From Tubulanus polymorphus (Eukaryota; Animalia; Nemertea), in NCBI RefSeq assembly GCF_964204645.1, contig NC_134032.1, positions 6,374,275 to 6,438,274 of the forward strand: a stretch of DNA of 64,000 nt, read 5' to 3'. The notes below the pieces were generated by a model, which was not told where the DNA came from, made no database searches, and worked only from the letters and a program-made list of their open reading frames with translations. Made by a program: the position numbers and the translations under genes. The stretch's first letter is position 1. The number at the start of each line of letters is the position of its first letter. This document shows, in pieces, positions 7,916 to 32,448 of the stretch.

Positions 7916-10900
7916 GAACTCAGTTGACTTTTACATCAACACCTATACCCATGAAAAACATCACAATAAACTATATAGGACTATTATTAACATGAGGAAA
8001 ACGACCAAAAAAATGTAGAAAATAACAACAATGATCTTCAACCTTATAGAATAATTTACTTTCAAAATCGTGATGTATTAAATTAGGCAGCCAACAAAAT
8101 TTTCCCCAATCAGTCACCTCCCGGATCAGGCTGGTTGGAAGATTGTTTGAGTGAACCGGAACCGTAATTTCAAATTATGTACTTCGATTCAATAAAAAAA
8201 TGCTATAATTTCTTCCGCCGATGACGCAACTATATCTGTACTTCGACTTCTGATTTCGACTTCTGACAACAAACAAGTCAAATCAAACGAAATCTACTAA
8301 CTGAATAAAAAATAGGGTCAATCCCTACTTTAAGATCAAGAACTCAACACATTTTTAAGCAACTTTCGCAATTTTTCCAAATGTTTCACATCAATCTGAT
8401 TCTGAGCATGTTCTTCAGTTATTGAGCAGAGCCCCTTAGACATAGAAGCATCAACTCTAAAAGGGCGGTCAGCATTAATCCCCACACTACCCACCAAACC
8501 TGCATTGTAGGGCTTAATAATAATATGAACACTGGTTAGATTGGTCTTGATTGCCACTCAGAATTGAATACATCTATAACAGCTGGTCAGCGAATAAGAT
8601 GATTATTAAAGCAATCTGCTGAATGCAATTTTCCGAGCGGCAGATTTATGACAAAATTGATGACAACAGACCATGAAAAACTAACCACAGACGCCACTAG
8701 CAATATTTCTGATAACGCATCATGATTAATTCAATCATGATTTTTTAATGTAAAACGCAGGGTACGTATCGATGAGCACACATGGAGTTCCTTGATTATC
8801 AGTGATCTAAATCTCCAACTTCCCTGATCCACACTCGACAATAACTGAATGATTGTACTTAAGAAGAACATTTTCAGTGGTGTGGGCATTTGGTTATCGG
8901 TTGTAACTAACATAGTTCGAGGTTGCATCTACGCTGCAACAGTGAGACCTATTCTTTGGTAAGATGCCCAATTTAGGGTGGTTCGGGTGACCTCCCCAGG
9001 AAAATTTTGAAGAAAATTCTTATTTTCTAAGACCCGCACTTATGCTACAATATAGGCCTAACCACTATTGTCGGAAATGATAAATTCTACGAAGTTAATC
9101 TTTAGAAATATTGTGTTCTCGCGAATGATAAGATATGGATTGCTTGAGTTTGAAGTGGCTGAATAGACTAAGACAAACACCACTATCACAGTCAATAAAT
9201 TGTACGTACTTAAAATCCTCAAGTCAACACTAAGAGTAGTAATAATATAACAATAAGCACAATCGCCCAGCTCGAAGAACTACCGGTACTATTTAAAGCG
9301 GCCTTCAATAGTTTCATGTACATTGATTGACGATTAGGCTACTTTGAGTTCATTTTTACACGCATGCTTACGATAAAATCATTAAAATATGGAGGGTGCA
9401 TTTATCGCATAAAAAACAGCAATGAAAGATGCAATTTCCCACTGAGAGGATCAGTGTCAAATTTTTGTTATTTTTGTTTTTTCATATTTCCTGACTTGAC
9501 AAAGGGGCAGCAATCTCAATTGAAAGGCTGGGGTCAGGACAAATGAAAATATCCCCTCAGATCAACAACCACCATATTTTTATATGTGAGGCCATGAGCG
9601 CAGCAATTCCAGCCAATGACAGACCGCATATACATAGTACGAATTATGACCCCTGTGTCATTAGTAATCAGTCATTAACTTTCAAATTCAAGCAGTTCGA
9701 AACGTAAACCAAACCTACAGCATAGCAAATGAATGGACCGGGATCTAGAAATGAAATTGGTAGGATTATGGTGTGAGCTGCCGATATGATGTGATCTTAT
9801 ATCTTCTTATATGATGTCGCTAGCAGATTGTATTCAAAAAAGAATCAGAAAGATAAAGATCTTTAAGAAATAGCTTTTCTACTAGAAATATATTTTCCTA
9901 TGATTCAAATCTATTCTCAAAATGCTTATCACGTGACCATTTGAGCAATTGCAGTTGCTAATAATCGTAACCGACATAAGCATGGAAGCAACTTGGCGGA
10001 TCTTGTATCCCGCTAGTCGGCCTCAGTTGCTGGGAATCGGAGCACAGTCAACATAAGCTGGACTGCGAACGCATTAACCCATTAGGCTATTTGAAATCTC
10101 CCTGATGACGACGATTAGGTTGAATAAACCACTAGCTCAAAGGAAACATTTCCCACTCCATTTTTTCCTTTCCTTAGTGTGGGATCGTGACAGCACGGAC
10201 TCGGAGAGTTTTTCATCAATGGTTTCTAAAAAGCATGCTTTTATTACAAACCCAGACTGCCGACGAAAAAGACAACTGGCAGAATACCACAACGCAGAAT
10301 TCTTCAACTCAACCAGACAAACGTCTGCGATATTTTCATTCATGAACTCACGTCTACCAAACATTACCAAATCATAACACCGACAATAAGGGAACAATAA
10401 GTGTTTACATTTCCTCGTAATCAACCTGTTATTAAAGTATGCATGAGTCGCGGCCCTAGTCGTTATAGGCAATAGAATTAACGTCGCCTTACTCCAACAT
10501 GGCCGATTTTTTACTGTGGCTAACTTTGACAACAACTATAAATCATTTTTCTGACTTCCTAACATATTTTCCGACTCCTAAGCTCACCTCGGGCCAATTT
10601 GCCACCGGTCCGAGTTAAGCAACCTTTACTGTAGGCCTATAGGCCTAATCAGAAATACAACACGTGATAAAGAGGATTAGTATTTTCTATGTAATGCCGA
10701 TTCAGTGACATACAGAGTGCCTCATGTGGGGAACACAGAAAAACTAGCGGCAGTAACAATTTGAAACAAACATTCTTAATGACGCAACATTTCCTTAGAG
10801 AGCTTTTGGGTGGGGGTTGAAAATATACCTTCAGTATGAAAACGGATAGACATAGTGGCATTCCTATGTTTGTGCTAAAAAGTAATTTGTTTCAGAAGTG

Positions 10901-11701
10901 TCAACATCGATGACCCAAAAAATCTAATCAATATTTTTCTCTATTGCCTAATTTATGAAAACAATTACCATACATAATTACGTCGGTCTATAGACAGGTA
11001 CACAGCCTAGATACTACAACACCCCTCCGGCGCTGACCATGACATAAATTATGAAATATGATTGAGAAATCTGATTGAATTTGAAATTTGCCAAAACTGA
11101 CTATAGGCCTACAAATTATACAAATTCCGACTAAAAAATAGAGATGACTTACAGTAATGTGATGATTCCCAAATGACAGCTTGTATATTTAGTAAATTGA
11201 ATTACAAGTTGTGACTCAAAATTAAAGATGACTTCAGTCAACTTGGGCCTAGACCTATACAAATAACTGATGACTTACACTTAGGCCTACGTCGTAAATT
11301 TAACTGCATACGAATTGGGACTCAAAGATTAGAAGGCCTCATGGAGTTTGACTTGGAGGCTGATTTATTTGCAATAAGCGAGCTGTGCAGCCGGTGTAGA
11401 TGACTTGTCAATCATCCAAACACAAAAATACAATTTTCACAAAGATTAATAGATCTTCAGTTGCCCGGTAGGTCGTCCGGAGAAAGACTGGAAATAATTT
11501 TTACCCCCCACAGAAACTGATTCTGAATGACAACAAGTAGGCCTATTCAACGGTCTATTGACGGCAAAACAAAATAACCATTTTCAAAATACCATATCTG
11601 ACATTTCCAAATGATAGGAGGTCTTCCATGCAGAGGTATGCAGCCTTTGAAATAGACCTAATGACTCACAAAATATTGTCACCAATCAACAAAGCTATCT
11701 T

Positions 11702-15000: not shown

Positions 15001-16423
15001 TCGATTACAACAAAAATTAGACGGATATCTTAAGAGACAATGAAATGCCAGGCAAATTACTCGTCAGTCAAATTGGCTGACGAAGATTGCATACAAAAAT
15101 GTCCTTCCCATTCCTGAAAGTGGTTTGTGAAAATATCCGATCATGAAACTAAACCACAGTCACAGACAGGTTACTGACTCAGGCCTACTGTGTATGTACT
15201 GAGTTGATGACTCTTCTGTTAGTTAGGCTAATTATGACTTAGGCTAGAAGAGTCATCGACTGCTGTCTGTCCGGTCCACAAAAAAACTGAAATCAATTTT
15301 TTAATCCTTTTAAAATTGCTTTTTAGCATGTTTATTTTTTTGCGCATTTTTTGTTTTATTTGATTCAGATTAAGTCGTGTCGTGACACTCTGACAGTACC
15401 GTGCGAACTCAAAACGGTCTCATCGCCTAGTACACATCCAGAAAATAAGTTACCCGAACTCGAACATACCTATTTAGTGCCTACTTACATCGAATTAAGC
15501 GTCGTTTATTCCGAATTTAATCCGTACTCTGCAGCCTACTCCGCGATCGATCAGCTGTGGGCAGGTGAGTGAGTAGTGGAGTGAATTCAACAAACGGGCG
15601 TTTCATGAAGAGTTTGTGACCACTGTTTTAGAATCACCGCAAAACGCAAACTTCTCCAATTCAATTCAAACATTATTGAGCATCAATTTTGATTGAGAAG
15701 TGAAAATCTAAATTGCTATAGGCCTAATCGTAATCATCAGCCTTTTTCCACAATACAATTCTTTGCGTTTTTTGCTTCTTTTTTGCCTCTCACCCTTTGT
15801 ATATTCTTGTTATTTTTCTTTCATGAACTTGGACTTATGTTTGAGGCGACGGCCCGTCTTGCGTAGCTTCGTTAATTATGCGCCATGCGTGACCAGGTGC
15901 GTGGATGCAAACGCGATAGTGGGCAGTTGCCAGTTGGTACGATTTGGTTGGGTAGGCCCGCATAGATTCTATTTGCGTTTTGTACTAATTAGTACGCAAT
16001 GGTCGTAGTTTGGATATTAAATTTCATCTGAAAATGTTGCTGTTCAGCATTTTCCAACATAGTAGAACGATCCTATTAATTATGATGGTGCGCGAAGAAG
16101 GCGGGCTCCTCCATTCCTTTGATGTGGTAAAACGTTTGTGTAGTCAGTTCATTTGGGAAGTCATGGCAACTCATACTCATCTGTACCTTTAGCCTATTTG
16201 GTAAATTTTTGGGGGTCAGCTAATGCGCCAATTGGACTTGACAACGTAGCAAAAGGCTTGTGCCACAAGTGCTACTTTTTGTAGTCCCAAGTTTTATAAC
16301 ATTTTAATACAGTTTATATTAATCATATTTTATTTTATGATATCGTACAGTATAAAGTCCTTTATTAAGCCCGGCGGTGCACACGTGTACAATTTTTGCC
16401 GAGTAACGAGACGAGTTACTATA

Positions 16424-16739
16424 AGTAATAGGGATAATAGGCTTTCAGGTTAAAGGTTGAACGGGCGGGTGAGTAAAAAATGAAAAACATAAAAATAATA
16501 ACAATAGCGAAACTCATAAAAATGAAAAATAAATTCTCACACGCTCGAATTTATTTTTCATTTTTATGAGTTTCACTCCTAATTCAAGTAGAAATTGTTA
16601 TTATTTTCATGTTTTTCATTTTTTACTCACCCGCCCGTTCAACCTTTAACCTGAAAGCCTATTATCCCTATTACTCTTAAAATATTCATATAAATGAATA
16701 AAATATAAATCATTGAACTTCTAAAATCAATTTTAATAA
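16424..16739 (+). repeat. Left TIR; 16424-16675 is itself a near-perfect palindrome
   Basis: Reverse complement of 31908-32239. Internal foldback around loop TCACACGCTC. The outer arm has AGC where the inner arm implies 19 bp. Confidence 0.95.
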
Positions 16740-16761
16740 TTTAAAAAATTACTACTTAGTT

Positions 16762-16962
16762 ATGACTGAATTACAAAAATGGGTTGGATATGCTTCATTT
16801 CAATTAGGATCGGTTATGACATTAATTTCTACTGGCGTCATAACATTTTCGAACATCAAGCCTATGGAATGTAAATCAGGCAAGAACGAAACAGATGTAC
16901 TACAACCAAACGTCGAAACAGAAAATGAATCAGAACAAAAATTAACTAAGATAAATGAGTGA
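16762..16962 (+). CDS. Small hypothetical protein with N-terminal hydrophobic segment (element gene)
   Basis: 66-aa ORF starting just inside the left TIR and overlapping the next start by 8 bp. Hydrophobic stretch WVGYASFQLGSVMTLISTGVITF. Confidence 0.5.
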   Translation: MTELQKWVGYASFQLGSVMTLISTGVITFSNIKPMECKSGKNETDVLQPNVETENESEQKLTKINE

Positions 16963-17326
16963 TGGAGTTAAGAAAAAGGCTAGATCCGAGAAACAAATTA
17001 AATGGGCAAGAGAATTAGGAAAAAGATCTTCAGAATCAAAAAAAGCTAAGAAAATGAAATTAACTGATATAAATGAATCACAGACTTTATCTGATATTGA
17101 TTCAAATAATAATCCATCTAATTCTTCTAATGCTGGAAGTAATTATAAATTATATATTACAATTGGATTAGTAACAGTTATTATATTATCCGGTGTAATA
17201 TATAAATCAAAATTCAAATCTGATGATAAAGATGATTCCAATGATAATCGGAAACCTATCATACCAGAAAATAAGTCAAATCATAAAGTCATTGAAACTA
17301 AATCTAAATTATTATTAATGGATTAA
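16955..17326 (+). CDS. Hypothetical basic protein with one predicted transmembrane helix
   Basis: 123 aa, TAAATG start, Lys/Arg-rich N-terminus, TM segment LYITIGLVTVIILSGVIY. Confidence 0.75.
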   Translation: MSDGVKKKARSEKQIKWARELGKRSSESKKAKKMKLTDINESQTLSDIDSNNNPSNSSNAGSNYKLYITIGLVTVIILSGVIYKSKFKSDDKDDSNDNRKPIIPENKSNHKVIETKSKLLLMD

Positions 17327-17332
17327 AATAGA

Positions 17333-18445
17333 ATGAAAAAAGAACAATATTTAAGAGATTTATATTATAACCCAGAAAGTGAAGTATCATATTCTAACGT
17401 TTCAGAATTATGGAATAAAATTAAATCTGATAATGGCAATGGTGCCGTACGGCACCCACACGGTGACATAAAATATAGTGAATTAAAATCATGGTTACAA
17501 AATCAACCAACATATCAAATCCACAAGAAAATGGATAAAACTTATTTAACAAGAAAAGTTATGGTTTCATATATCGATCAACAATGGCAAGCAGATTTAA
17601 TTGACATGAAGAACTTAGAGGAATACAACAAAGGATATTTCTGGATACTGAATGTTATAGACATATTCAGTCGATACGCATGGTCAATTCCAATCAAAAA
17701 TAAAACTGGAATAGAAGTTACAAATGCTTTTAAATCTATATTTAAAGAAGCTATTCCAGATAAGATACAATTTGATGAAGGTAAGGAATTTTATAACAAA
17801 CATTTTAAAAAACTATTATCTGATAACGATGTAGATTATTTTTCAACACACTCAGATAAAAAAGCATCTATTATAGAAAGATTTAATAAAACATTGAAAA
17901 CTAGAATGTGGAAATATTTTACTGCTAATGAAACATATAAATATATCAATGTGTTAGATGATTTAGTGAAAGGTTATAATAATTCTAAACATAGTTCTAT
18001 GAATATGAAACCTATACAAGCTAGAAAAGAAGATAATTCAGAAATAGTTTGGAATAATTTATATGGCGCGTTTGTTGCACATGATTTCGGAGAACCTAAA
18101 TTCAAAATAGGACAACACGTAAGAATATCTAAATATAGAAAAACCTTTTATAAAGGTTATACCCCAAATTTTACAGAAGAAATATTCAAGATTAAAAAGA
18201 TAATATTAACTAAACCTTTTGTTTATAAATTAGAAGATTTAAAAGATGAAGAAATATTAGGTTATTTCTATGAACAAGAATTATCACTTGTACCAAATCC
18301 AGATGAAATAGAATACAAAATAGAAAAAGTATTGAAAACAAAAACTCTTAAAGGAAAAAAGTATTCTTTGGTGAAATATAAAGGATATGATGATAAATTT
18401 AATGAATGGATTTTATCTAGTAAAATTAAAAGAATAAATGAATAA
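17333..18445 (+). CDS. Retroviral-type (rve, DDE) integrase with C-terminal chromodomain
   Basis: Catalytic motifs WQADL, QFDEGKEF and IIERFNKTLK. Chromo-like YKIEKVL...LVKYKGYDDKFNEWI. Intact 370-aa ORF. Confidence 0.96.
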   Translation: MKKEQYLRDLYYNPESEVSYSNVSELWNKIKSDNGNGAVRHPHGDIKYSELKSWLQNQPTYQIHKKMDKTYLTRKVMVSYIDQQWQADLIDMKNLEEYNKGYFWILNVIDIFSRYAWSIPIKNKTGIEVTNAFKSIFKEAIPDKIQFDEGKEFYNKHFKKLLSDNDVDYFSTHSDKKASIIERFNKTLKTRMWKYFTANETYKYINVLDDLVKGYNNSKHSSMNMKPIQARKEDNSEIVWNNLYGAFVAHDFGEPKFKIGQHVRISKYRKTFYKGYTPNFTEEIFKIKKIILTKPFVYKLEDLKDEEILGYFYEQELSLVPNPDEIEYKIEKVLKTKTLKGKKYSLVKYKGYDDKFNEWILSSKIKRINE

Positions 18446-19050
18446 AGATTTATTTATATTTGAACCGCATAATATGTTAATAACTGGAGTAACCAATTGT
18501 GGTAAAACACATTTCATATTAGACTTGTTAGAAACTATTTATAAGAATCATTTTGATAATATAATATTATTCTGTCCTACTTATGAAATGAATAAAACAT
18601 ATAATAGAGATATAGTTAAGATGAAAAAGTTTATTATATTAAATCCTAAAACAGTAAAAGAAAATTTAGATAATTGTATTAAAATAGCAATTGATACTTA
18701 TAAAGGATCAAATACATTATTCATTATAGATGATTGCGCAAATTTACATGATTCAAAAGTTAGAGAAAGTGAGTTATGTTATCTAGCTTTCTCCGGGAGA
18801 CATTTTGGGATAACAACTTGGGTTTTAAAGCAAAAATATAATTCAATTGTTAAAGACTTTAGAGAAAACATTAGATTTCTAGTTTTATTTTATAACAAAA
18901 ATAAAAAAATCTATGCAACAATCATTGGAAGAAAATCAAATTATACCTACTGAATTACACGATGAATATATAAATAAATTAAAGAATAATAAAGGTTCAA
19001 AATTATTACTGAGACTACAATTTCCCTATGAATATAAATTTATAAAATAA
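18438..19050 (+). pseudogene. A32/FtsK-like genome packaging ATPase, frameshifted near the C-terminus
   Basis: Walker A GVTNCGKT, Walker B FIIDD, SGRH motif. After the A-run near 18903-18909 another frame continues KSMQQSLEEN...YKFIK* to 19050. Confidence 0.9.
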
Positions 19051-19074
19051 AATTTATAATTTGGAATATTATAG

Positions 19075-19467
19075 AAACTAATTTATATATCTATGTACTA
19101 GACGTACGAGTAAGAAAGTAAGATTCTTGCCAAGAAAGTAAGAAAGTAAGAATCTTGGTAAGAATTCTTACGTACGTCTAGTATATAGATATATAAATTA
19201 GTTTTATAATAATTATTCTAAATTTAAATTATAAAAATTATATGTTTTCTCTTAATAAAAATAAAAATAGATTATATTATAACTATTTCTATACTTAGAT
19301 TAATAATTTTATGTTTTTAATTTTTATGAAAACTAAATTATATATCTATGTACTAGACGTACGAGTAAGAAAGTAAGATTCTTGCCAAGAAAGTAAGATT
19401 TCTTGGATTCTTGGATTCTTACCAAGATTCTTACGTACGTCTAGTATAAAGTTATATAAATTAGTTT
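19075..19467. terminator. Two directly repeated ~130-bp palindromes between convergent gene blocks (candidate bidirectional 3'-end signal)
   Basis: Units 19075-19204 and 19330-19467, each with arms AAACTA...CTAGACGTACG / CGTACGTCTAG...TAGTTT. The structure is directly visible; the terminator role is inferred from position. Confidence 0.5.
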
Positions 19468-19475
19468 TATAATAA

Positions 19476-20646
19476 TTATTCTAATTTTGTTTCTAATATA
19501 TTTATAAAATCATCTCTGTTTATATCTAATTCACTAAAAGTCTTAGGTAGATTTATTAATTTTAATTGAGCCATCTTAACATAATTATTAGTAGGTATAT
19601 TAGCTTTTTCTCTTAATTTTTCTAAGTATTCATCAAAATCATCATAATCAAAATCAAAATGATATCCAAAATTAGTTATCAGATAATTTAAATCTATTTT
19701 TCTTAAATATAATAATTTATATATTTGTTTAGGATTATTTTCTGCATAGGCTAATAATTTATCAAATAACAACTTATAGAATATATAATATTGGTTAGTT
19801 TTAGGATTGAAATATTTGATATATTTCTCTGGGTTATTTAACAATGGTATCATACTCACCATTTTATAAACATTAATTAGATGTAACTTTGATTTATAAT
19901 GAGTATTTTCATCAACAGGTTCAATTTTCTTATTACAATATTGACACATTTTATTTCTTTCTATTTCTTCTAATTTCTTTTCATTTTCGATATGCGCTTG
20001 AGATTTTTTATGCTTAGAAAAATTACTTTTAGAAATATCTAAATTACAAATGTTACAATGTTTTTTAGAATCATCAATTGTTTCATTATCATTAGTTTCA
20101 ATTGTATCAACATTATCTGTTATATTCTCTATGGTATCATTTGTTTCAATTGTATTAACATTATCTGTTATATTATCTATAGTATCATTTGTTTTGAATT
20201 GTATTAACATTATCTATGATATTATCTATTATATTATTATCAGATATATTATTATCATTATTATTCTTTTCTTTTTCTATATGTTTATTTGATTTCTTAT
20301 GTGATGTCCAATTTTTATATGATATATATTTCTTACATACATCACAATATTTTTCATTTGTCTTTTTGGTTTTGATATCAGGTTCAATCTTATCATTATT
20401 AGATGTAGTAGGTATTACTGTAGTAGGTATTACTGTAGTAGGTATTACATTATTATCAATTACATTACTTAATTTATCAACAACTTCACTTTTATTATTA
20501 TCGATTTCTATTAGTTTAGTTTTATAAATTTTGAAAATAGGATCAAATATCAAAGCTATATTACAAGGTATTACATAATATAAACCATCATTATTTTCAT
20601 GTGTATCGATGTATGGAATATGTTTATATACTTTACCACCTTCCAT
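19476..20646 (-). pseudogene. Protein with three U1/matrin-type C2H2 zinc fingers and internal repeats, split by a frameshift near 20190-20210
   Basis: ORFs 20185-20646 and 19476-20210 overlap. Fingers CDVC..HKKSNKH, CNIC..HKKSQAH and CQYC..HYKSKLH. VIPTT x3, and 48-bp repeats spanning the frameshift. Confidence 0.8.
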
Positions 20647-20678
20647 TTGATATAAGATTTTTTATTAAAGTTAAAATT

Positions 20679-21926
20679 TTAATACATAACACTATCTAAT
20701 TGTGAATTTACAATATTTAATTGCGCGTCAGATATAATATAAATGTGCATTTTAAAATTTTTGATTCCTTTATTTTTTGTCATGAATAATTGTATTCCAT
20801 CTTTAGTGTTCTGTAGTTTTTTTCCAGAACCATGTAATGAATTATCCTCTGTTGTTCTAAAATCTAACCATAATGCATATTTATTACCGGTATAATAATC
20901 AATTTGATTAATGTTACAATTTTCAAATGATTTTACTTTTTCATTCATAAAATGTTTTCTAATTTCTGGCCATTGATCAATCATTCTCATTCCTTGACAA
21001 AATATTTTATTTGCTATTCCTTCGATAGTTATTTCTACTTTTGTTATTTCAGGATTATAATAATTATCAACATTTATTGCGCCATTAGTATATGTTGCAA
21101 TGGTAAAAAATATTAATATGCCTTTAATAGATCTTCTTGGGAAGTTAATATTCTCATTAATTATTTCATCATTTGCATTAATAGTTACGGTTTTAAATTT
21201 ATCAATATAATCATATAATAATGAAAATCCTTGATTGTATTTAGTTTGAATTATACTTGAAATATTTTCATCAGTTACTGTGTCATATTCTAAACATATA
21301 TTTGATAATTTATAACTCATATCTTTAACAACGCTAGATAATACAATTTCATTTACAGGAGCAAAAGTTATCTCAAATATAACGTCTTCTTGAATTGCGT
21401 ATTTATATAAAGGTGCATTATTATTTATCAATTCAAAGTTTAATGGAATTTTATATTTGCTTCCATATATACTGTTTATCAATTTATCTACAGCATTAGT
21501 TAATATTGCGCTATTAGCTTCTGATCTTAATTTATTTTGGTTTTCTGATTGGATTCCTTGAAATATCATATTATTTCTATTTTCTTTAGTTAACCATAAA
21601 TCTTTATAATGCATAAATAAATTATAATCATCCAATGAGAAAACTGTTTCTGGACCAATCTTTATTGTTAACTTTTTAATCAAATATCTTCCAACATTAT
21701 CAACAACATAATTATTATTATTACCGATTACTTTTATATCGGCCGATAAATAAATACTATTTGGAACATAAAAAGTATTTTTTGTTAATCTAGGAATTCT
21801 AACATATAAAGTTTCATCGGGATTAATATTTGAAGGGTTATGAGTAATTATACGATGTGATCTTTCTGCTTTAATAGCATTAGATATTCTATGATTCTTA
21901 GAAGGATTGATATAACTCCCACTCAT
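20679..21926 (-). CDS. Major capsid protein (double jelly-roll, hexon-like), intact
   Basis: 415 aa. Pattern THNPS.I....L.VRIP, NVGRYLIKKL, YKDLW, YKIPL, ICLEYD matches my recollection of invertebrate Polinton capsids. Size and position fit. Confidence 0.8.
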   Translation of the reverse strand: MSGSYINPSKNHRISNAIKAERSHRIITHNPSNINPDETLYVRIPRLTKNTFYVPNSIYLSADIKVIGNNNNYVVDNVGRYLIKKLTIKIGPETVFSLDDYNLFMHYKDLWLTKENRNNMIFQGIQSENQNKLRSEANSAILTNAVDKLINSIYGSKYKIPLNFELINNNAPLYKYAIQEDVIFEITFAPVNEIVLSSVVKDMSYKLSNICLEYDTVTDENISSIIQTKYNQGFSLLYDYIDKFKTVTINANDEIINENINFPRRSIKGILIFFTIATYTNGAINVDNYYNPEITKVEITIEGIANKIFCQGMRMIDQWPEIRKHFMNEKVKSFENCNINQIDYYTGNKYALWLDFRTTEDNSLHGSGKKLQNTKDGIQLFMTKNKGIKNFKMHIYIISDAQLNIVNSQLDSVMY

Positions 21927-21945
21927 TTATTTAACAAAAAATTAA

Positions 21946-23386
21946 TTATTTATTTTTTGATATCATGTTTACTAATCCAAAAATAATAGCACTTACAACA
22001 GTTATTAAAAATAAAATAATATGTTCAGCAGCAAAGTTAATAATGTTTCCTGCAGATTTCAATATAAAACCAACAATTGAAGTAATAACTCCAGGTAAAG
22101 CTGCAGCAGATTTTTTAGATAGTTCCCATAAATATTTTGCTAATTTCTTTAAACCATCTTTAACTTTATCTTGTATAGAATGATCACCTGGGGGTTTATC
22201 TGGTTTATTGGGAGTGGGAGTAGGAGTAGATTTTAAAGCATTTGATATAGCTAAACCAATTGTTGTGAATAACATAGTTACAGCTGTTAGAATTGAAAGA
22301 ACTGTTATTCCTTCTAATTTAAATAATAACTTTATTCTATCTTTCAATGATATTTTAGAATCTGGTTTTATCAACAAATCTTTAAAAATAACTTTTAATC
22401 TATTAATATTATAATCATATGATTTTAATAATAATTTAATTTCTTCTTTTTGTAATTCTATGTTATATTCTAAATCATCAATTTCTTTTTCTAAATATGC
22501 ATTTCTTTTTTTAAATTCAATTTCTTCAATAACTTTATTATCTCTATCTAATTTTAATTGTTCTATTTCTTTATTTTTATCAGTTAATTCTTTTTCTAAA
22601 GTTCTAATTTTAAAATCTCTTATACTTTTATCATGCGCAATTTTATCAGATGCATTTCTTATACTAATAATTTCTCTAATTGCTTTATCAGAAAATATAT
22701 CTAAATCTTCTAATTCTTGATCTGTTGCATCAAGTAATCCATTCGGTAAAAGTTTTTCAATTGGAACTTTATTTGATTTAAGTTTACTATTTTTGGAAGT
22801 TTTATTCTGTTCAGAAGTTGTTTCTGTTTCTGATTTCTTTTTGATTATTTCAAATAATTCATTAATTCTTTGTTTAAATACTTCTCTATTTTTATTCATT
22901 TCTGTTTGTGTTAAATCTTCTACTATATAATTAATATTACTTATTCTCTTAATTCTATCTGGATCTAATTTTCTCAAAGTTAATTTTGTTATTATTTTTT
23001 TTTTTATAAGTGATATCAATATAATAATCACCTTTCAAACGATAATAACATTTACCATTATCTAAAAATTTTAATTGATCTGCTAAAGGTCCAACGTCTT
23101 CATCATTTATGTTAAGTTTAGAATTTTCAATTAAATCTTCTAATTTAGCTATTTCGTTTAAATTATCTAAATCTTGTTTTACTAAATATGGGTCTAAATT
23201 TTCAGGATATAATTTTGATTCTGCATTTTTAATATAATCATGCATATTTAAATTATTATTATATTCTGGCTCATTACCGTCATTATCAATATTAGTTTCT
23301 GCATCATTATAATCATCATCAATATATCCTTCATTATTAATTCCCATGCCTTCCATTTCATAATCTTCTCCACCTTCTACATCCAT
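21946..23386 (-). pseudogene. Acidic/coiled-coil protein with C-terminal membrane helices, split by a frameshift in an 11-nt homopolymer (22995-23005)
   Basis: ORFs 22955-23386 and 21946-23031 overlap at the homopolymer. Coiled-coil-like region followed by three hydrophobic segments and a PTPTP linker. Confidence 0.8.
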
Positions 23387-23402
23387 TTACATAATAAAAA
23401 AA

Positions 23403-24842
23403 TTAAAATTTAAAATATAATATTCCTCCGATTACAATTCCTATACAAGTTATAGCTAATTTAGTATTTTCATGGGATTTATTATCATCATTTAGTTTAA
23501 TTATATCATGTTGAATAATATCAGTTTTAATATCACCGTGTGGGTGCCGTAAGGCACCATTTTCTGTAGTATTATAATCTTTTATTTTAGAATCATTATT
23601 TAATTTAATATTCTTAGTTTTAGTTTCAGTTGATTGAATGTGTTTTTTATTTTTTTCACCTTCCATTAATTTTGGAGCAGTAATAATCTTTTTATTTATA
23701 TCATTCAATCCAAAAGAATTATTTATTGTTGCAGTTTTAATTAGATTATTATAACCAATTATGTTTCCCATCTTTAATACTAAATCATTAGAAATAATTA
23801 ATAGATTAGGGCCTATACAATAATTAAGCCTTACATGAGATTTATCTAGATAATTTTGATATCTTATAATGTTTTCTGGAGTCGATCTATTTTTATCATT
23901 ATGAATTGAATCTTCAAATAAAACTTTAAATTGTTTCTGTGTATCAAATGATGTATTCAAATTTCCAATTATTGGTGATCTTGTTTCAACTTGCGCACCT
24001 AAAATACATATCAAATAAGTTCTAATAGATTGATTTATTCTTTGTATACCTGATTTAGTAAAACCTTCACTATTTTCTAAAATAAAATAAACCCAACCAT
24101 TATTGTTTTCTTGTTTTAAATTATCATAAAATTTCGGTAATTTATTGAAATTTAATGTTTCTAAATCCTTAGTTTCTATTTTACCATAACCTAATTTATT
24201 ATTATAAATATTATAAAAGCTATTGTAAATATTATAAAATCTATTAAAAGATGGTATGGGAAGTGCGCAATATGCTGCAACATTTTCAGGGCAAGGAAGT
24301 GATCTTATTGTTCCAATTTTTGTTCTAAAATCAGAATTATTTATATCTATATTAAATTCATTGCAAATTTTATAAAACTTTGATAAATTAATATTATTAT
24401 CTAATTCTTTAAAATATCTTGATCCTGGTAAAGCGCACTCTAATTCATTTAATATTATTCTGATTTGAAAGTATGTATGAAATCTAAATAAACTTTGAAT
24501 TAGTTTATATTTAGAATTATTCAAATGATCATTCCAACTTATTCCACATCCTGTTGTTGCACAATAAACAGCAAAATTTAATTGGTTCTGCCAATACTTC
24601 ATATTAGATTTTAATAACCATTGTTTTTCATCTTTCAATTTTTTAAAATTAATTAAATATACATGAAATATATTTTCCATCTTTGCATTAAAATTATTAG
24701 TTTCAGTAACATAAATTTCTAAATTAGTTAATGAATCTAAAACTTCATTTCTATATGTAATATCTTTATTAAAATCTATTGCTGGAATATTATATTTAAT
24801 TGATTTATTATATTGGAAAGCTTTTGAAAAACTATCTACCAT
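23403..24842 (-). CDS. Hypothetical element protein with C-terminal membrane anchor
   Basis: Intact 479-aa ORF with motifs WQNQLNFAVYCATTGCG, FRFHTYFQIR and SIRTYLICILGAQ. Ends LAITCIGIVIGGILYFKF. Confidence 0.85.
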   Translation of the reverse strand: MVDSFSKAFQYNKSIKYNIPAIDFNKDITYRNEVLDSLTNLEIYVTETNNFNAKMENIFHVYLINFKKLKDEKQWLLKSNMKYWQNQLNFAVYCATTGCGISWNDHLNNSKYKLIQSLFRFHTYFQIRIILNELECALPGSRYFKELDNNINLSKFYKICNEFNIDINNSDFRTKIGTIRSLPCPENVAAYCALPIPSFNRFYNIYNSFYNIYNNKLGYGKIETKDLETLNFNKLPKFYDNLKQENNNGWVYFILENSEGFTKSGIQRINQSIRTYLICILGAQVETRSPIIGNLNTSFDTQKQFKVLFEDSIHNDKNRSTPENIIRYQNYLDKSHVRLNYCIGPNLLIISNDLVLKMGNIIGYNNLIKTATINNSFGLNDINKKIITAPKLMEGEKNKKHIQSTETKTKNIKLNNDSKIKDYNTTENGALRHPHGDIKTDIIQHDIIKLNDDNKSHENTKLAITCIGIVIGGILYFKF

Positions 24843-24887
24843 TTATTCAATAAAAAAATTAATAATTTATTAATTCTTTTAATAATT

Positions 24888-25286
24888 TATCTTGTTCTAT
24901 GACCATTTAAACTTATGATATAATCTAGTGTGTTCTTTAATTTATTAATTTCTTTTATATTAGTTTTAATTTTTTCTTTATTACTTTTTATATTTAATTT
25001 TGAACTTATACCGGTTAAAACACTTGAACTTAATCCTAACACACCAATTGATATAGCTAAAGGTGTTAATGGGCTGAATATCTTTGTTAATATAATCCAT
25101 ATAGTTTTGCCTCTTTTCTCTATATTCTTCTGCAGCTTTATTATATTTCTTTAACGCTAAGTTATGTCTTCTTTGTTCTCCTAATGAACTATTTTTATCA
25201 ATATGTTTAAATAAATATCCACCACCAGTAAATGCTAAAGCGTTAACAATTGCCGATCCTATAATAGTTATAATTGCAGAAGCCAT
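24888..25286 (-). pseudogene. Probable deletion fusion of two small membrane-protein genes
   Basis: N-terminal part MASAIITIIGSAIVNALAFTGGGYLF...EQRRHNLAL runs to ~25085. A different frame then gives IFSPLTPLAISIGVLGLSSSVLTGISSKL...LDYIISLNG. Confidence 0.6.
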
Positions 25287-25310
25287 TTATTTAGTAAAAA
25301 AATTATGCAT

Positions 25311-25532
25311 TTATATGGGAGGAATATATTTTTGTTTTTCCAAATAATCAATAGTTAAATTAGATAAAGTAACTGCTAATGTTAATTTTAAAATATCATT
25401 CATATCAAATCTATCAACATTAACACTTCCCATTTTGAATACTTTTTTTAATACCATTGAATAACCAACAGTTCCAACTGATAGTAATGCGCCATTATAT
25501 AATCCAGTTATTATCCACTTATTATCACTCAT
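25311..25532 (-). CDS. Small hydrophobic protein, putative virion/membrane component
   Basis: 73 aa, two hydrophobic helices, carries the shared upstream motif. Confidence 0.75.
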   Translation of the reverse strand: MSDNKWIITGLYNGALLSVGTVGYSMVLKKVFKMGSVNVDRFDMNDILKLTLAVTLSNLTIDYLEKQKYIPPI

Positions 25533-25874
25533 TTATTTATCAAAAAAATTACTATCATCAAAATATTTAGTTATCTTAGTGATGATTAATTCGACATTTA
25601 TTTCATTACTACTTTTATGATTATCATATATTTTGGATAATATGTTTTTGATACCTTCAATAATTCCATCTTCATTTAATTCATAATATTCTAAAGGTGA
25701 TTTAATTAAATCAATTACTTTTTCTATATTATAATTTTCTTTATCAATCATTGATGCATTGTTAAATGATTTACTTTTTATATCAGTAATTACATCATTT
25801 AGTTTAATTCTCATTTCTTTACCATGTTTAAAATCAAACCCAAAACATATACTCGGTCCAACAGTTATATTCAT
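25533..25874 (-). CDS. Hypothetical protein
   Basis: 113 aa. Its stop abuts the next start (TAAATG), and it carries the shared upstream motif. Confidence 0.7.
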   Translation of the reverse strand: MNITVGPSICFGFDFKHGKEMRIKLNDVITDIKSKSFNNASMIDKENYNIEKVIDLIKSPLEYYELNEDGIIEGIKNILSKIYDNHKSSNEINVELIITKITKYFDDSNFFDK

Positions 25875-25891
25875 TTATATAGTGAAAAAAA

Positions 25892-26400
25892 TTACTCTCT
25901 ACATCTTACAACTAATTCATAAATTACGGGGAAATTATTTAAATCAATTAAGTATCCATTATGATTTCTAATTTCTAATCTAAAATTATTAAAACGAGGA
26001 ATGCATGGTTTGAAATCACATTCTGTTAAATTATAATTTATTTGCGTTCCAAATTCTTTAACATTACCTTTTACTCTAATTCTTTAATTCTTTAACTACT
26101 ACCTAATTTGTGCCAGGCTTTTCTATTAATTTCTTGTGCTAATGTATCTAAATTATATAACCCCGGTTTTAAGTATATATAGACCCATTCATTTTTATTT
26201 TTATTAAAAACTAAAAAGGCTCTATGTTCAATAGTTTTATTCGATATATTGTAAAAAGAATTACATAAACTTATATTTACTAATTTTAAATCAACACAAT
26301 TCTTAAATTCTCTATCTAATTGTACTAATAAATTATGTGATTTATAATTTGTAAGTTTTCTAGAATCTACAAATATTCTGTATTCTTTTAATTCTACCAT
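25892..26400 (-). pseudogene. Minor capsid protein (penton-like single jelly-roll) with internal lesion near 26085-26100
   Basis: N-terminus IFVDS...NSFYNIS...LKPGLYN..LAQEIN. In another frame, C-terminus FRLEIRNHNGYLIDLNNFPVIYELVV..* ends at 25892. Both ends look like penton termini, but only ~165 codons remain. Confidence 0.65.
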
Positions 26401-26405
26401 TTATT

Positions 26406-26768
26406 TTACATATTTAATTCGAAATCTATTTCATGGTGCCCTTTTTCATTCTTACCTTTGTATACGAAATAGAAATCTCCAGAACATAATTCTTCTAAAT
26501 CTTCACTTGATAATCTATGAAATCTATCCGGTAAATATGTTCTGAATTGATATGTATTTCCTTTTAATCCTTCATATTTAAAGTGTATAACTAATTTATC
26601 TCCATAGTTATTAGTAACTGTAACAATATTTGTAATTAGATATTTCTTATGGATTATTAATTCTGTTAACTTTTTGAATTTATAATCTACAGATTTTACA
26701 TTTGTGATATCTTTAATTCTATCTAGAAATAATTTGTTGTTCTCACTGTGCGCTTGTTTACTCTCCAT
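26406..26768 (-). CDS. Small protein next to pPolB, possibly an OB-fold ssDNA-binding protein
   Basis: 120-aa intact ORF. Beta-strand pattern FKKLTEL..KYLI..YGDKLVI..YLPDRF..FVYKG. The function is inference only. Confidence 0.55.
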   Translation of the reverse strand: MESKQAHSENNKLFLDRIKDITNVKSVDYKFKKLTELIIHKKYLITNIVTVTNNYGDKLVIHFKYEGLKGNTYQFRTYLPDRFHRLSSEDLEELCSGDFYFVYKGKNEKGHHEIDFELNM

Positions 26769-26797
26769 TTTAATAACATATTTTTATCAAAATTTGA

Positions 26798-29700
26798 TTA
26801 ACACGTTAGAATTCTTTTCATTATCTCGTTCTCTTTTGTTTCTTCTCTTTTAAATCTTAAGTATTCATCTAAATTACAACCATAAGCAACTGTATGAATT
26901 CCATCATCTAAAATATATCTTTTATCATCAAATGGGTTTAGACTTACCTTTTCAATTTCTTCAACATATTGTTCATGATCTTCAGATCTTAAACTTCTCA
27001 TCTTATGTTTTCTAACTTCTTCATTGAATATACAATTGATGTAATCTTTGAAATGAATATTCTTTTCTACTACACTTTTGGTTATTCCTTTTAACTTTTT
27101 AGCTTCATGTTCTTTAGTTTTATATGAATACATTTTAGATCTAATACCAATGAATTCAATCATTTCTTCACCACCTAATTCATCTTTGAATTTACCAGGA
27201 ACTTTTTTATTATCATTGCTAAACAATTCATGATTTTTAGGATAGTTACTAAAATCAAAATGATGTTTTAATGTTTTTAAATCATCTGTTATGTTATCAG
27301 TTTTTATCTTTAATATGTAAGAATCTGTATTTTTTATGATTAATGGAAATCCACAATTAAATGTACCATCTTCAGTTGTTAAATCATAAACACATTCTGT
27401 AGGATTGGATATTTCTAATAAATCAGTAGCTTCTTCAGTTAGTTCATTTTCTACATGCGTTAATTGAAATACATTTAGTTTATCTTTTCTAATATTAACT
27501 AACATATTAAATCCTAATGAATTGCATAATATATTTAATCCTGATATAGCAACTTTTCCTTTTTGTGTCAAAGATATAGTTTTATGTTTTGTATAGTTTT
27601 TTGAACCATCTGCAGCATAAAATCCAATGAAGAACCATTTTCTTAAATCATATTTTGCATTTAATACATAATCTGGAACTATCTTTTCTTTTGTTGAAGT
27701 ATTACGTTTCACTATTGCATGAATATAGAATTCATCATTATATTTAATTGCAAAATCTTTAGTATTATTTACATGTATTCTATAAACTGCTGATGATTTC
27801 ATAACATCCATGATTCTAAATGTTTTATGTGAATAAACTTCTTCACAGTATTTCTTAATTCTTTCTAATAATTTCAAATCTTGATTGCATAAATACCAAC
27901 AATATTTAGTTCCACTAACATATTTATACACACCTGCTGAACCATCTCCCATAAAAAATCCTTTGATAAAATATTCTTTTTCTTCCAATGTTTCGGGTTC
28001 TATATTATAAATATTATCAATTATTTTATCAAATGACATATGATTCATTCTTGGGTAAAATCTGTTGTGTAATAATTCATCTCCAATTTTTATATCAGTT
28101 GGTTTTATTTCATCACCATTTTGTTTAATTAAACTATGATCTTCAGTAACATCAACAAATCCTAATTTAGTTCTAACTCTATAGATTTTCTTATTCGTTT
28201 TATGTCTAATTATATTCTTTAATTTCGCCCATCCATTTTTTGTCCAAACATCCATTAATCCATTTATTTGTATTAATTCTTTTTCACCATACGAAATATA
28301 AAGTTCATTTTGTTTTGGAATTATTTCTGAAATTCTTCTAATTAACATTTGATTATTATATTTTAAAAATATTGGGGTGTCAGCTGTTACAGAATCAAAA
28401 TATGATATTTCTATATGTTTTTCTCCAAAAAGTGGTTGTAATACATTATAATAGAATTCATACATTAGTAATTTTGATAATTCTAAAACTGAAGCGCCAA
28501 CATAGATTGGTTTATTAAATTTATTGATGTTCTTCTCATCTTAACTGCAGCTAAATTTTCATCAAATATTCTGTTACCAATGAACTTAGGATATGATTAT
28601 AAATGCCTTATCCTTTTACCATTACTGACTAACTCAATATCATTTCTATTTCTAATATTTTCACAAGTCTTACCATAGAATGCATTATTCATTAACTTGA
28701 AGAAATCTTTCTCGAAATCAGTTTTAGCTTTAGTTCTCTGTTTGGTGTTAAAATCTATATATTTTTCTAACCACTTAGATTGACTAAATGAAATATATCT
28801 ATGTACTTTTTTTAGAATCATTCCTTGATTCAAATAAAACTTTAACATTCTATAATGTACTACATAATTATATTTATCTTCTTGAGTTACCATTAACTTT
28901 TCTGTATGAATATGATTTTCAGGTTTAATTCTTTTTTGATAACTTGATAATTCTTCATGAGTTACAGTTTTATGTTCGGGGCAGTAAGCTAGATTTCTAG
29001 ATTTAAATTTAATATGTTCAGGATATTCTAAATCTACAACAAAGAAGTAACCAGTATCTGAATCATCTGCAATATCTAGAATTCTTTTCTTCCAATCAAA
29101 TTTATCATCATTTTCATTCTGTAAAACTTCACTTATTTCAAATACTCCATAAGGTTGTGGTTCCATCATTGCCCAACCATACAAATTATTTGCATCTATA
29201 TATAATAACTTATATCCGGGGTTATCATTTACATTGAAATATCTATCACCTAATACACCTGAAACTCCTCCTCTTATAGATTTTTCAAATAATAATAATT
29301 GATCTATATTTGTTAACAAATCCATTTTTATATCTGTAAATTTCAATCAACAATCCCATGTTAATCCTGGTGATGAATAACAATGACAAGGATCAATATT
29401 AAAATATTTTAGGTTTACATCTCTAAACCTTTCGAATATATCGGTTAATAATAATACATCTGATTTTAGATATAAATCTACTAATTGCCCATGATTTTCT
29501 ATTTTGAAATGATTCCAAATATTCAATGTTCTATTATAGACTTCATCTTTAACATATTCGTTTTTTAATTCATCATAGAATTGTTCTTTCAATAATTCAG
29601 TTATTTTAAAATCATTATGATTTTTATAGAAAGAATATGGAATTGCGCCTTTATATCTCATTAATTTAAAATCATCAATATTTGGGTAATATTCTTTTAA

Positions 29701-31891
29701 TATCTTTAATTCATCATCAACTAATGATTTTGATAAGTTATCTAATGAACGATTTAAAAATCTATATGAATCTATAAATCTTAAACACCCAAATTGGAAT
29801 GATATATAATTCTCAGATGTTTTAGCTAACATTCTAAATTTATAAGTTGGTATTTTATCTTTTGATCTATTTGAATTTAATATTTCTATTTCATTATTGA
29901 TTTCTTCTATTTTATAGCATAACTGTTTGATGAATAAATGTGCATCATATCCTGATAGATTATGAAATATAACTGCTACAAAATTAATTTTCTTAGCTTG
30001 TAAGTTACAATTCTCATGTGCAGCGCCTCTAAACTTTCCATTCAAATGATCATGGTCTCTTACTTTTTTATCTTTATAATTAAATATCTTTTCACAATAA
30101 TAACATTTACCTGCAAACGCAAATTCTTCTTTATCTTCTTCTGTCATAATTATTTCTTTATTTGTATTCAATAATTTACTAAATCTTATTTCATATTCAA
30201 TTAATAAGTCACAAAAATGATTGATAACATTTTCATTTCTATAATTATAATATTCACTTTCAATTAGTTCTGGATAATCAGATTTAATATATGACCCGAA
30301 AGCCGCAGCTGATTGATGAATCTTTTTAATAGTATTTGTTTTTGGTGGTTCATCTGAAAAATCATTTTCATTAGAATTTAATTTCTTTCTTTTATAATAT
30401 ATTTCTTTTCTATCTTGATCAGTTAATTCTTTATTTAATGATTCAAAATCTCCATATATTACAAATGGTACTTTATTTTTGTAATCATATTTTTTGAATT
30501 CTAATATTTTATCTTTTTCATTTGGTAAATCTAATTTACAATAATCATGATTTTCACATAATTGTTTATGATTTAATAACGTACTTTCATTACTGAATCT
30601 ATGTAAACATTTTCTACATAGATATATCTTATTATGGTGATCACTTTCTGTTCTAAAAAATAAATCTATTTGTTTAATCCACATATAATGATTCTCATAA
30701 TATAATATATCTATAACATCGTTTGAATCATAATCTTTTGATAGATATAAAGGTTCTAATGTATAATGTTTTATATTGTTACCTTTTGTATTTGGTAATT
30801 TGATTAAATCAAATACATTTATTTTTATATTATTATCTCTTTCTATTTTTGGGATGTTTTTAATTATAACAGGATACTTATCTATCTTATAATTATTTTC
30901 AAATAGTTTATAATTTGTTAATCTATAAGTATGTTTATTATAATCTTCAACTGAGTGTAAGCAACTTATTATAGCCCATAGAAAACATTTATCATCTTCA
31001 TTTTGTACATTTATTACAGCATTAGTTTTAAATGGTAGTTTAATATAACTTGTTCCATTTATACTATCATCTTTATAATAAGATAAATTATTTTCATCAA
31101 TTGGTATCGATTTAGTTAACTTATTATTTTTTGTGTTATAAACATGTAAAGTCATAAATATTATCTCATCAAATATTAAACCAGATCCTTCAAAATATTT
31201 CTCTTCTATTTTAGTTTTTACTTCATTATAACATTTATCTAATTTATCATCTATATGTTGTTTAGATATAATATGTTGTGAATGAGAATGGTTTATCTTC
31301 AGATTTTATAAACTTTACTTTAACTGATATACTAATTTTAGGATATTCAACATCAGTAATTATTTTTATAATATTTTTCATATTTTCTAAATGTTTTTTA
31401 TTTTCTTCTAATGTTTTTCCTTTATGAAATTTAAACTCGATAGCTGCTGGACCAATATCACTTTTAAATGCTTTGGTTATCTCTATATCTTTTTTATTAT
31501 CTAATGAATTAATATATTTTCTTACATCTTCCATGTATGATCTTTTATTGTTTAATTTATTTTTTATGCTTTTAATTGTCTTCTGTTTCTTATCATTATC
31601 TTTATCAAAATAATCTTCACCTAAAATATCATTATTCTTATTTCTAATATGACTTATAGATTTTAAATGTTCTTTATAATATCTTTTATCACTGAATGAT
31701 TGATTACATGTATCACATTTGTATGTTTCTTTTTCATTCTTTAATTCATCTAATTTAGATTCTAATTTATCATCTTTATTTTCTAGTTTCAATTTATTCT
31801 CTAAATGTGTTTTAGTTTTATTGTGTCTTGCTTTTTGGGATTTATCTATATTGATTTTACATGTTGGACAGTAGTACTTATTTGCTTCCAT
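26798..31891 (-). pseudogene. Protein-primed family B DNA polymerase (pPolB) polyprotein with intein; 2 premature stops and 2 frameshifts
   Basis: Exo motifs YGDFES, FHNLSGYD and YLKSD. Pol motifs YIDANNLYG, KLMNNAFYGK, YFD|TDS and KLKGI. Lesions: frameshift ~31265-31290, TGA 29347-29349, TAA 28597-28599, frameshift ~28521. Confidence 0.95.
27329..28393 (-). mobile_element. Intein with LAGLIDADG homing endonuclease (355 aa) inserted in pPolB motif C
   Basis: Block A SVTADTP, block B DVTEDH, LAGLIDADG blocks IKGFFMGDG and FIGFYAADG, block F VYDLTTEDG, terminal KN then +1 Thr. Removing it restores YFDTDS. Confidence 0.95.
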
Positions 31892-31907
31892 TTTAATACT
31901 AAATTTT

Positions 31908-32239
31908 TTATTAAAATTGATTTTAGAAGTTCAATGATTTATATTTTATTCATATATATGATTATTTTAAGAGTAATAGGGGTAATGGGCTTTCAAGCTA
32001 AAGGTTGAACGGGCGGGTGAGTAAAAAATGAATAACATGAAAATAATAACAATTTCTACTTGAATTAGGAGTGAAACTCATAAAAATGAAAAATAAATTC
32101 GAGCGTGCGAGAATTTATTTTTCATTTTTATGAGTTTCACTCCTAATTCAAGTAGAAATTGTTATTATTTTTATGTTTTTCATTTTTTACGAGCTCGACC
32201 GTTCGACCTTTGGCCTGAAAGCCTATTATCCCTATTACT
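31908..32239 (-). repeat. Right TIR; 31972-32239 is itself a near-perfect palindrome
   Basis: Reverse complement of the left TIR. Foldback around loop GAGCGTGCGA (32101-32110). Confidence 0.95.
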
Positions 32240-32448
32240 ACTATAGGTTTTTATTTGACGTACCTTACGAGCTTTCGCTTCTAATATAGATACTTCATCA
32301 GGTGAATAGTGCATGAGACTCATTCACCTGATTGAGTGAATGAGACTCATTCACCTGATGAACGAGCTTCTATACATTAGAAGCGAAAGCTCGTGCGTCA
32401 AATAAATAGTTAACCTATAGGCCTATAGTACTACCCGTCTCGTTACTC
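32240..32448. repeat. Larger part of a palindromic MITE-like element interrupted by the Polinton (left stub 16401-16423)
   Basis: GAGTAACGAGACG (16401) is the reverse complement of CGTCTCGTTACTC (ends 32448). Inner arms TATTTGACG..ACGAGCTTTCGCTTCTAAT / ATTAGAAGCGAAAGCTCGT..CGTCAAATA. Confidence 0.8.

Follow-up and report, generated by a model that had tools for sequence, protein, structure and literature searches.

Gene starts of an integrated Polinton-type element

We have examined gene starts in a 64,000-nucleotide stretch of the Tubulanus polymorphus (Nemertea) genome (contig NC_134032.1, positions 6,374,275 to 6,438,274, forward strand; hereafter the window), in which an integrated Polinton-type element of 15.8 kb carries a recurring motif consisting of TAA, a run of six or seven T residues, a spacer of six or seven nucleotides and TAAATG. 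The motif occurs six times in 64 kb, every time at a gene start, within 21924-25894. A first-pass annotation had likened this arrangement to the late promoters of poxviruses and had proposed that the structural genes of the element are transcribed by the RNA polymerase of a helper virus. All six strings match letter for letter at the ATGs it gave, and TAAATG lacking the T-run is present at 16955, 18438 and 26400, as it had also described. Starts with the T-run are termed T-class, and related loci are numbered with the prefix L.

21924..21944, minus strand: T-class start motif of the major capsid gene (ATG 21926, TAA-T6-GTTAAA-TAAATG); the capsid genes of L001-L010 begin with the same layout
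23384..23405, minus strand: T-class start motif of an acidic/coiled-coil gene (ATG 23386, TAA-T7-N6-TAAATG), 485 aa in L002, broken in the window
24840..24861, minus strand: T-class start motif of a 479-aa gene (ATG 24842, TAA-T7-N6-TAAATG)
25284..25305, minus strand: T-class start motif of a small hydrophobic gene, 139 aa in relatives (ATG 25286, TAA-T7-N6-TAAATG)
25530..25551, minus strand: T-class start motif of a 73-aa hydrophobic gene (ATG 25532, TAA-T7-N6-TAAATG); its TAA doubles as the stop of the upstream open reading frame (ORF)
25872..25894, minus strand: T-class start motif of a 113-aa gene (ATG 25874, TAA-T7-N7-TAAATG)
26398..26403, minus strand: TAAATG start of a predicted minor capsid gene; T at -9, no T-run
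16952..16957, plus strand: TAAATG start of a 123-aa gene that begins at 16955; no T-run
18435..18440, plus strand: TAAATG start of the A32 ATPase gene; no T-run

A search of both strands of the whole window with the pattern TAAT{6,7}N{5,7}TAAATG returned six matches, all of them ORF starts, and none in the 48 kb of host flank. Enrichment over background, a check suggested with the annotation, was confirmed, as the full pattern is expected 0.010-0.015 times on average, and at most once, in Markov simulations of the element (orders 1, 3 and 5; 200 each). The pattern was derived from the same six sites, and the independent test is therefore provided by relatives. Bare TAAATG is not enriched, with 46 copies observed in the element and 33-46 expected; thus, what makes the signal is that TAAATG sits on start codons and has a T-run upstream. 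At 6/6 window sites TAAATG overlies the start codon and T occupies -10, with a spacer of 6-7.

The six genes had been called consecutive. This holds because the ORF at 22899 belongs to the gene starting at 23386, which is a single 485-aa ORF in L002, with the reservation that a degraded seventh gene (144 aa in L002) sits between 25286 and 24842, only its 3' half being left and its start and promoter gone. The motif at 25532 does overlap the upstream ORF, but this overlap is weak as evidence, since the homolog aligns over its residues 1-23 only and the two genes do not overlap in L002. The remaining features of the element are as follows.

16424..32239: integrated Polinton-type element, 15.8 kb; ends AGTAATAGGG...CCCTATTACT, 6-bp target duplication ACTATA at 16418-16423 and 32240-32245
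16424..16739: left terminal inverted repeat, which forms an imperfect palindrome
31908..32239: right terminal inverted repeat, a palindrome with 129-nt arms and a 10-nt loop
17333..18445, plus strand: rve integrase with chromodomain (Pfam rve 8.9e-10, Chromo 8.6e-5)
18438..19050, plus strand: A32-type packaging ATPase, in two frames in the window copy (Pfam Pox_A32 1.8e-12)
19035..19468: inverted-repeat cluster at the convergence of the two transcription units
20679..21926, minus strand: major capsid protein, 415 aa, double jelly roll, ORF intact (AlphaFold2 pLDDT 90; Foldseek match to PBCV-1 capsid, E 1e-17, also to iridovirus and mavirus)
25892..26400, minus strand: predicted minor capsid (penton-like) gene, split in two, a lead obtained through the L002 homolog with its DUF5901-like fold
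26798..31891, minus strand: protein-primed DNA polymerase B in several pieces, which map onto a single 1693-aa PF03175 protein, P0121
27329..28393, minus strand: intein with LAGLIDADG endonuclease in polymerase motif C

AG...CT ends and a 6-bp target duplication are hallmarks of Polintons/Mavericks, and the window element has both. By its polymerase, integrase and ends it is a Polinton; the protease of the group 1 definition was not detected, no adenovirus-type cysteine protease being found among the 18 element ORFs or the 11 L002 ORFs (three ORFs without a family). Among the 18 element ORFs, some of which fall in no family, Pfam likewise gave no match to an RNA polymerase, a transcription factor or a protease, in agreement with the earlier statement that the element encodes no RNA polymerase; the 479-aa gene has no Pfam or Atlas match. 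GC content is 0.20-0.26 inside the element, the DNA of which is 78% AT, versus ~0.37 outside, and the flanks are gene-poor and repeat-rich. The polymerase, ATPase, 23386 and minor capsid genes are disrupted in the window copy, indicating that this element has decayed and that its promoters would be inherited signals. DNA reads of run X7, counted from 85% identity upward, cover most of the element ~200-1100-fold versus 6-10-fold in the least-covered flank bins, which implies roughly tens of copies of the element family.

Each terminus (16424-16739 and 31908-32239) is a long palindrome that opens and closes with the terminal sequence of the element. A hairpin lies 3' of the ATPase gene in the window (19035-19468), L001 (3720-3837), L004 (3163-3275) and L002 (9173-9340), its position being kept and its sequence not; this long hairpin is a possible 3'-end signal. 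The window version is rare among copies (depth ~35 versus 400-900). A GC-richer, 36-nt inverted repeat pair (17438-17473 and 23526-23561) is in frame within the integrase and the 479-aa gene, and reads show shorter alleles near 17081-17439. Beyond the element, 60602-63154 (minus strand) holds an 850-aa ORF of low complexity, with tandem repeats of 27 and 60 nt and no Pfam match, which is probably a host exon.

Restriction of TAAATG starts to two capsid clades

An alignment of 86 capsids was used to fetch 87 loci, the metagenome relatives being the best 80 of 299, and a fast tree was constructed from 69 capsids of the fetched loci only. Nineteen of the 87 loci were excluded from the tree and clade counts as their capsid ORF is <330 aa, and L033, at 50% identity, was joined to clade A for promoter profiles, permutation and all-ORF counts. 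TAAATG starts fall in two capsid clades, A (the window and L001-L011) and B (eight loci, 31-36% identity). Among homolog-confirmed starts, TAAATG is present at 30/34 in clade A and 20/21 in clade B, and at 0/145 in 49 other loci, so that conservation in sister elements, another check suggested with the annotation, is observed; background ATGs are preceded by TAA in 5-6% of cases. When all ORFs of at least 120 aa are considered, 45/54 begin with TAAATG in clade A and 27/32 in clade B. These starts are thus element-wide rather than confined to a structural module, as had been supposed, and only one of the six T-class genes, the major capsid gene, is shown to be structural. Base composition does not explain the pattern, as TAAATG occurs at 0/32 homolog-confirmed starts in AT-rich loci of other clades and at 24/24 starts in clade A/B loci with a GC content of 0.33-0.44. 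These sequence comparisons show that two Polinton-like virus clades share the motif as a conserved signal for gene starts.

Variation among genomic copies is distributed unevenly within the motif. Two promoters vary at 5/12 spacer versus 1/32 core positions (differences in at least 3% of reads, with less power for sites near the edges of the read-covered stretch), and the T-run varies in length by one base. The excess of spacer over core variation suggests that the promoters were under selection while the family spread.

Of the 86 capsid relatives, 50 lean toward the Capsid_N profile of nucleocytoplasmic large DNA viruses (NCLDV), and one capsid of 38% identity carries a bivalve name. Several genes in another AT-rich clade (L013, L015, L021, L027 and L041) open with TATA(A)n-ATG, not TAAATG. 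This other start may point to a different helper. L002 encodes a deoxynucleoside kinase at 10340-10981 (Pfam dNK 1.7e-31) under a T-class motif, with similar-sized ORFs in L001 and L004; this kinase gave no clue to the helper. Related elements L083, L084 and L085 are on contigs filed in a bacterial genome bin; these contigs are likely contaminants of eukaryotic or viral origin.

Comparison with poxvirus promoters

According to published descriptions, poxvirus late promoters have TAAAT(G) on the start codon with a conserved T at -10 of TAAAT (PMC11980589) and a spacer of 5-7 bp (PMC5294985). Salmon gill poxvirus also keeps TAAATG (PMC4542343), and intermediate promoters consist of TAAA with an A/T-rich core further upstream (PMC11980589; PMC5294985). 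For direct comparison with poxvirus DNA, 4 of 13 fetched loci were used (GC 0.30-0.65; 49 TAAATG starts; one orthologous region). T residues peak at -12 to -10 in the poxvirus loci, at -10/-9 in clade A, where 49 starts have T at -9 in 88% and at -10 in 78%, and at -11 to -8 in clade B. A matrix covering positions -20 to -5 was built from poxvirus TAAATG starts, with TAAATG itself left out; it distinguished start from non-start TAAATG with an area under the curve of 0.77 in the window, 0.79 in clade A and 0.81 in clade B, and 0.76 in the reverse direction. Permutation of the matrix columns gave p values of 0.0025 (clade A) and 0.0005 (clade B), indicating that position matters. In the controls, non-start sites gave 0.60 and 0.85, and the other AT-rich clades 0.28. 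Pairs of divergent ATGs spaced by 15-16 nt, each within TAAATG, are found in four clade B loci and in 4/4 poxvirus loci.

The proposed likeness to the late promoter layout was therefore upheld, in that TAAAT over the start codon followed by G, T residues near -10, a 6-7 bp spacer and back-to-back pairs at 15-16 nt are common to both. The signal differs in its setting, a 16-kb integrated element in which no RNA polymerase was detected, and in its usage, TAAATG opening ~83% of clade A genes versus 39% in the poxvirus control. The geometry of the start signal is specifically poxvirus-like; the mechanism proposed below is inferred.

Three further starts in the window carry an A-run and are termed A-class.

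31889..31914, minus strand: polymerase gene, with the A-class start motif at its 5' end (TTAATAAAAAAT...TAAAATG)
26766..26790, minus strand: A-class start motif of a 120-aa gene
20644..20668, minus strand: A-class start motif of a zinc-finger gene; TAAATG form in the L001 and L004 homologs

These sites and four in relatives compare with 0.035 expected for a pattern that was set post hoc. The A-run is located at -14 to -9, nearer than the intermediate core as described, which lies 15-19 nt upstream in promoters lacking T at -10, and A-class sites, to a weaker degree, recall poxvirus intermediate promoters. The early machinery of poxviruses is virion-bound, and resemblance to the intermediate class would fit a satellite barred from it. 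The poxvirus early consensus AAAANTGAAAA has seven matches where 1.1 are expected, all in the terminal palindromes and none in the 15-kb interior; they are not used as evidence because they reduce to two motifs multiplied by repeats, and T5NT counts are uninformative. A single spacer of 29-31 nt separates two divergent genes in L007 (370-399), L008 (2017-2046) and L009 (788-819), its central A/T tract being T-class toward the capsid gene and A-class toward the opposite gene.

Candidate transcription machinery and relation to known systems

We consider it reasonably probable that the motif is a promoter for the post-replicative RNA polymerase of a predicted poxvirus-like helper, which need not be a true poxvirus. 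On infection of the cell by this helper, element DNA would reach the cytoplasmic factory, where the post-replicative machinery would initiate within TAAAT to yield nearly leaderless mRNAs, predicted to bear a 5' poly(A) made by slippage. T-class sites would fire late, producing capsid and small hydrophobic proteins, and A-class sites (polymerase and zinc-finger genes) would, in a weaker step of the scheme, fire earlier in an intermediate-like manner. We infer that the window element would work like a provirophage with pox-type promoters.

Several observations weigh against a poxvirus-like helper. At three of the six sites (25894, 24861 and 23405) the upstream gene ends in the leading TAA, and the integrase start in the window copy is without TAAATG. 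A non-TAAATG clade is placed between A and B at SH 87 in the fast tree, so that the two may not be sisters. The clade A T profile matches that of poxviruses best after a one-base shift, and the A peak is at -15/-14 in clade A versus -13 in poxviruses. With the nine window starts alone, permutation gave p 0.072, short of significance, and the p values in general overstate independence because the four poxvirus loci all come from one orthologous region and the promoters of the elements are related to one another. The nearest non-Polinton relatives of the intein are in delta-like, not poxvirus-type, polymerases. Finally, a motif scan of IMG/VR (41/64 parts) returned at least 120 loci with one match each and no candidate helper. 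Among loci with several ORFs in that scan the top one is a poxvirus (4/6 starts); IMG/VR contained no relatives of the capsid or polymerase, and a literature search for invertebrate poxviruses found nothing relevant.

The polymerase intein was also considered as a pointer to the helper. Intein-less alleles exist in the same species, as a joint skipping 1065 bases is present in 94 reads of X7 and also in X1 and X2. The closest relatives of the intein are in other Polinton polymerases (64-46%), followed by delta-like polymerases of giant viruses (~43%), a kinship that implies intein traffic between Polintons and giant viruses. As a pointer it was rejected, since it led to giant viruses without the start signal, TAAATG being found at 9/102 starts in eight loci around relatives of two delta-like polymerases. 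The intein is thus evidence of contact with other giant viruses, not a guide to the helper.

The sites could instead be promoters for a non-poxvirus cytoplasmic polymerase, that of an unsampled nucleocytovirus (asfuvirus- or egovirus-like) or of a linear plasmid-type element, as pGKL2 is for pGKL1 in yeast, an explanation we regard as unlikely though well short of negligible. Yeast virus-like elements have a TAAAN initiator, 5' poly(A) leaders and stem-loop terminators (PMC6211774), and the hairpins after the ATPase gene in the window and three relatives, the ties of the intein to non-pox giant viruses and the 1-2 base offset of the T peak from poxviruses point in the same direction. However, the asfarvirus initiator is TATATA, not TAAATG over the start codon, and the giant viruses that share the intein do not use the start signal; the word 'promoter' has no match in the text of the egovirus preprint. 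Like the present element, pGKL1 and pGKL2 combine protein-primed DNA polymerase B, terminal repeats and a pox-like initiator, and one needs the polymerase of the other; they differ in being cytoplasmic and capsid-less and in forming a system that encodes its own polymerase. Furthermore, their upstream conserved sequence, ATNTGA, is not enriched here, preceding only 2/86 element starts. Transcription by host RNA polymerase II, which would read the sites as an initiator or short-leader promoter with a convergent likeness to poxviruses, appears improbable. Expression by host machinery is the easiest account of an integrated element at tens of copies, and many sites include TATAAA, but a TATA box works ~25-30 bp upstream of the start site and one over the ATG would start transcripts within the ORF. 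In addition, the motif pattern is absent from both the 48 kb of host flank and 49 related loci, and ATGs 15 nt apart leave too little room for two ordinary leaders.

Two explanations would deny the motif any promoter function. It could be a by-product of dense gene packing, in which a stop codon is followed by a T-rich terminator for the upstream gene and then by either a translation context rich in A or stop-start coupling. For this reading the shared stop codons at three of the six sites and the use of TAAATG as stop and start at 25532 would speak. We give this little credence, as the T peak in clade A is as strong where starts lie head to head (4.75 T of 7 on average; T at -9 in 12/12) as where they lie head to tail (4.32; 29/34), and its persistence between head-to-head genes indicates that it is not a terminator of the upstream gene. 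Moreover, equally dense AT-rich relatives use AAAATG-type starts, with TAAATG at none of the 32 noted above, and the spacing is fixed to the ATG rather than to the upstream stop (gaps of 0-24 nt where the upstream gene is whole). Chance in 78% AT DNA is consistent with the background frequency of bare TAAATG in the element, yet it is scarcely conceivable for the full motif, observed 6 times versus 0.01 expected and retained in relatives up to GC 0.44.

Promoters for the polymerase of a poxvirus-like helper, the reading we prefer, would have counterparts in Sputnik and mavirus, in which late promoters are common to virophage and helper (PMC6428243). As in those systems, a small capsid-encoding element would carry the start signals of a larger cytoplasmic virus, with an integrase as in mavirus, whereas the signal here is of pox type rather than of mimivirus or Cafeteria roenbergensis virus (CroV) type, no cysteine protease was detected and the host is probably an animal, judging from the flanks and the bivalve-named capsid. 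Polinton-like viruses co-sequenced with entomopoxviruses have been proposed as poxvirus parasites (PMC11296320) and resemble the present element in this proposed dependence; compared by description, they differ in that the link is by co-sequencing and no rve integrase is reported in the accessible portion, and 'promoter' occurs 0 times in the text and supplement available. With Mavericks/Polintons (Polintoviricetes, adintoviruses) the element shares protein-primed DNA polymerase B, rve integrase with chromodomain, A32 ATPase, double jelly-roll capsid, terminal inverted repeats and the 6-bp target duplication, but is distinguished by the lack of a detected adenovirus-type protease, capsid kin toward NCLDV Capsid_N, palindromic termini, the intein and helper-type promoters. 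Our literature search, which had most subscription papers and preprint supplements outside its scope, found no report of poxvirus-type promoters in Polintons among the matches listed, and a term search for 'promoter' gave 0 matches in the main texts of PMC11131425, PMC11071308, PMC8502044, 10.64898/2026.10.13.758929, 10.64898/2026.06.19.733378 and 10.1101/2024.03.23.586382. A Polinton virion has never been seen, as stated in 10.64898/2026.06.19.733378.

A broader and more tentative proposal, which we put forward while thinking it rather less probable than its negation, is that one lineage of integrated high-copy animal Polintons may be a class of provirophages of so far unsequenced invertebrate poxviruses. 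They would carry an intermediate and late promoter programme copied from the helper, promoter sequence alone would predict the helper of each clade and reveal such poxviruses, and the copies may act as an inducible antiviral defence like mavirus in protists. The expression of Polintons and their need for a helper is a long-open question, which a clade-restricted, poxvirus-type promoter makes directly testable. If true, the interpretation would mean that promoter piracy, as in protist virophages, also reaches an integrated element whose host is probably an animal, and would provide the first regulatory evidence for poxvirus hyperparasites together with a sequence signature for finding their helpers.

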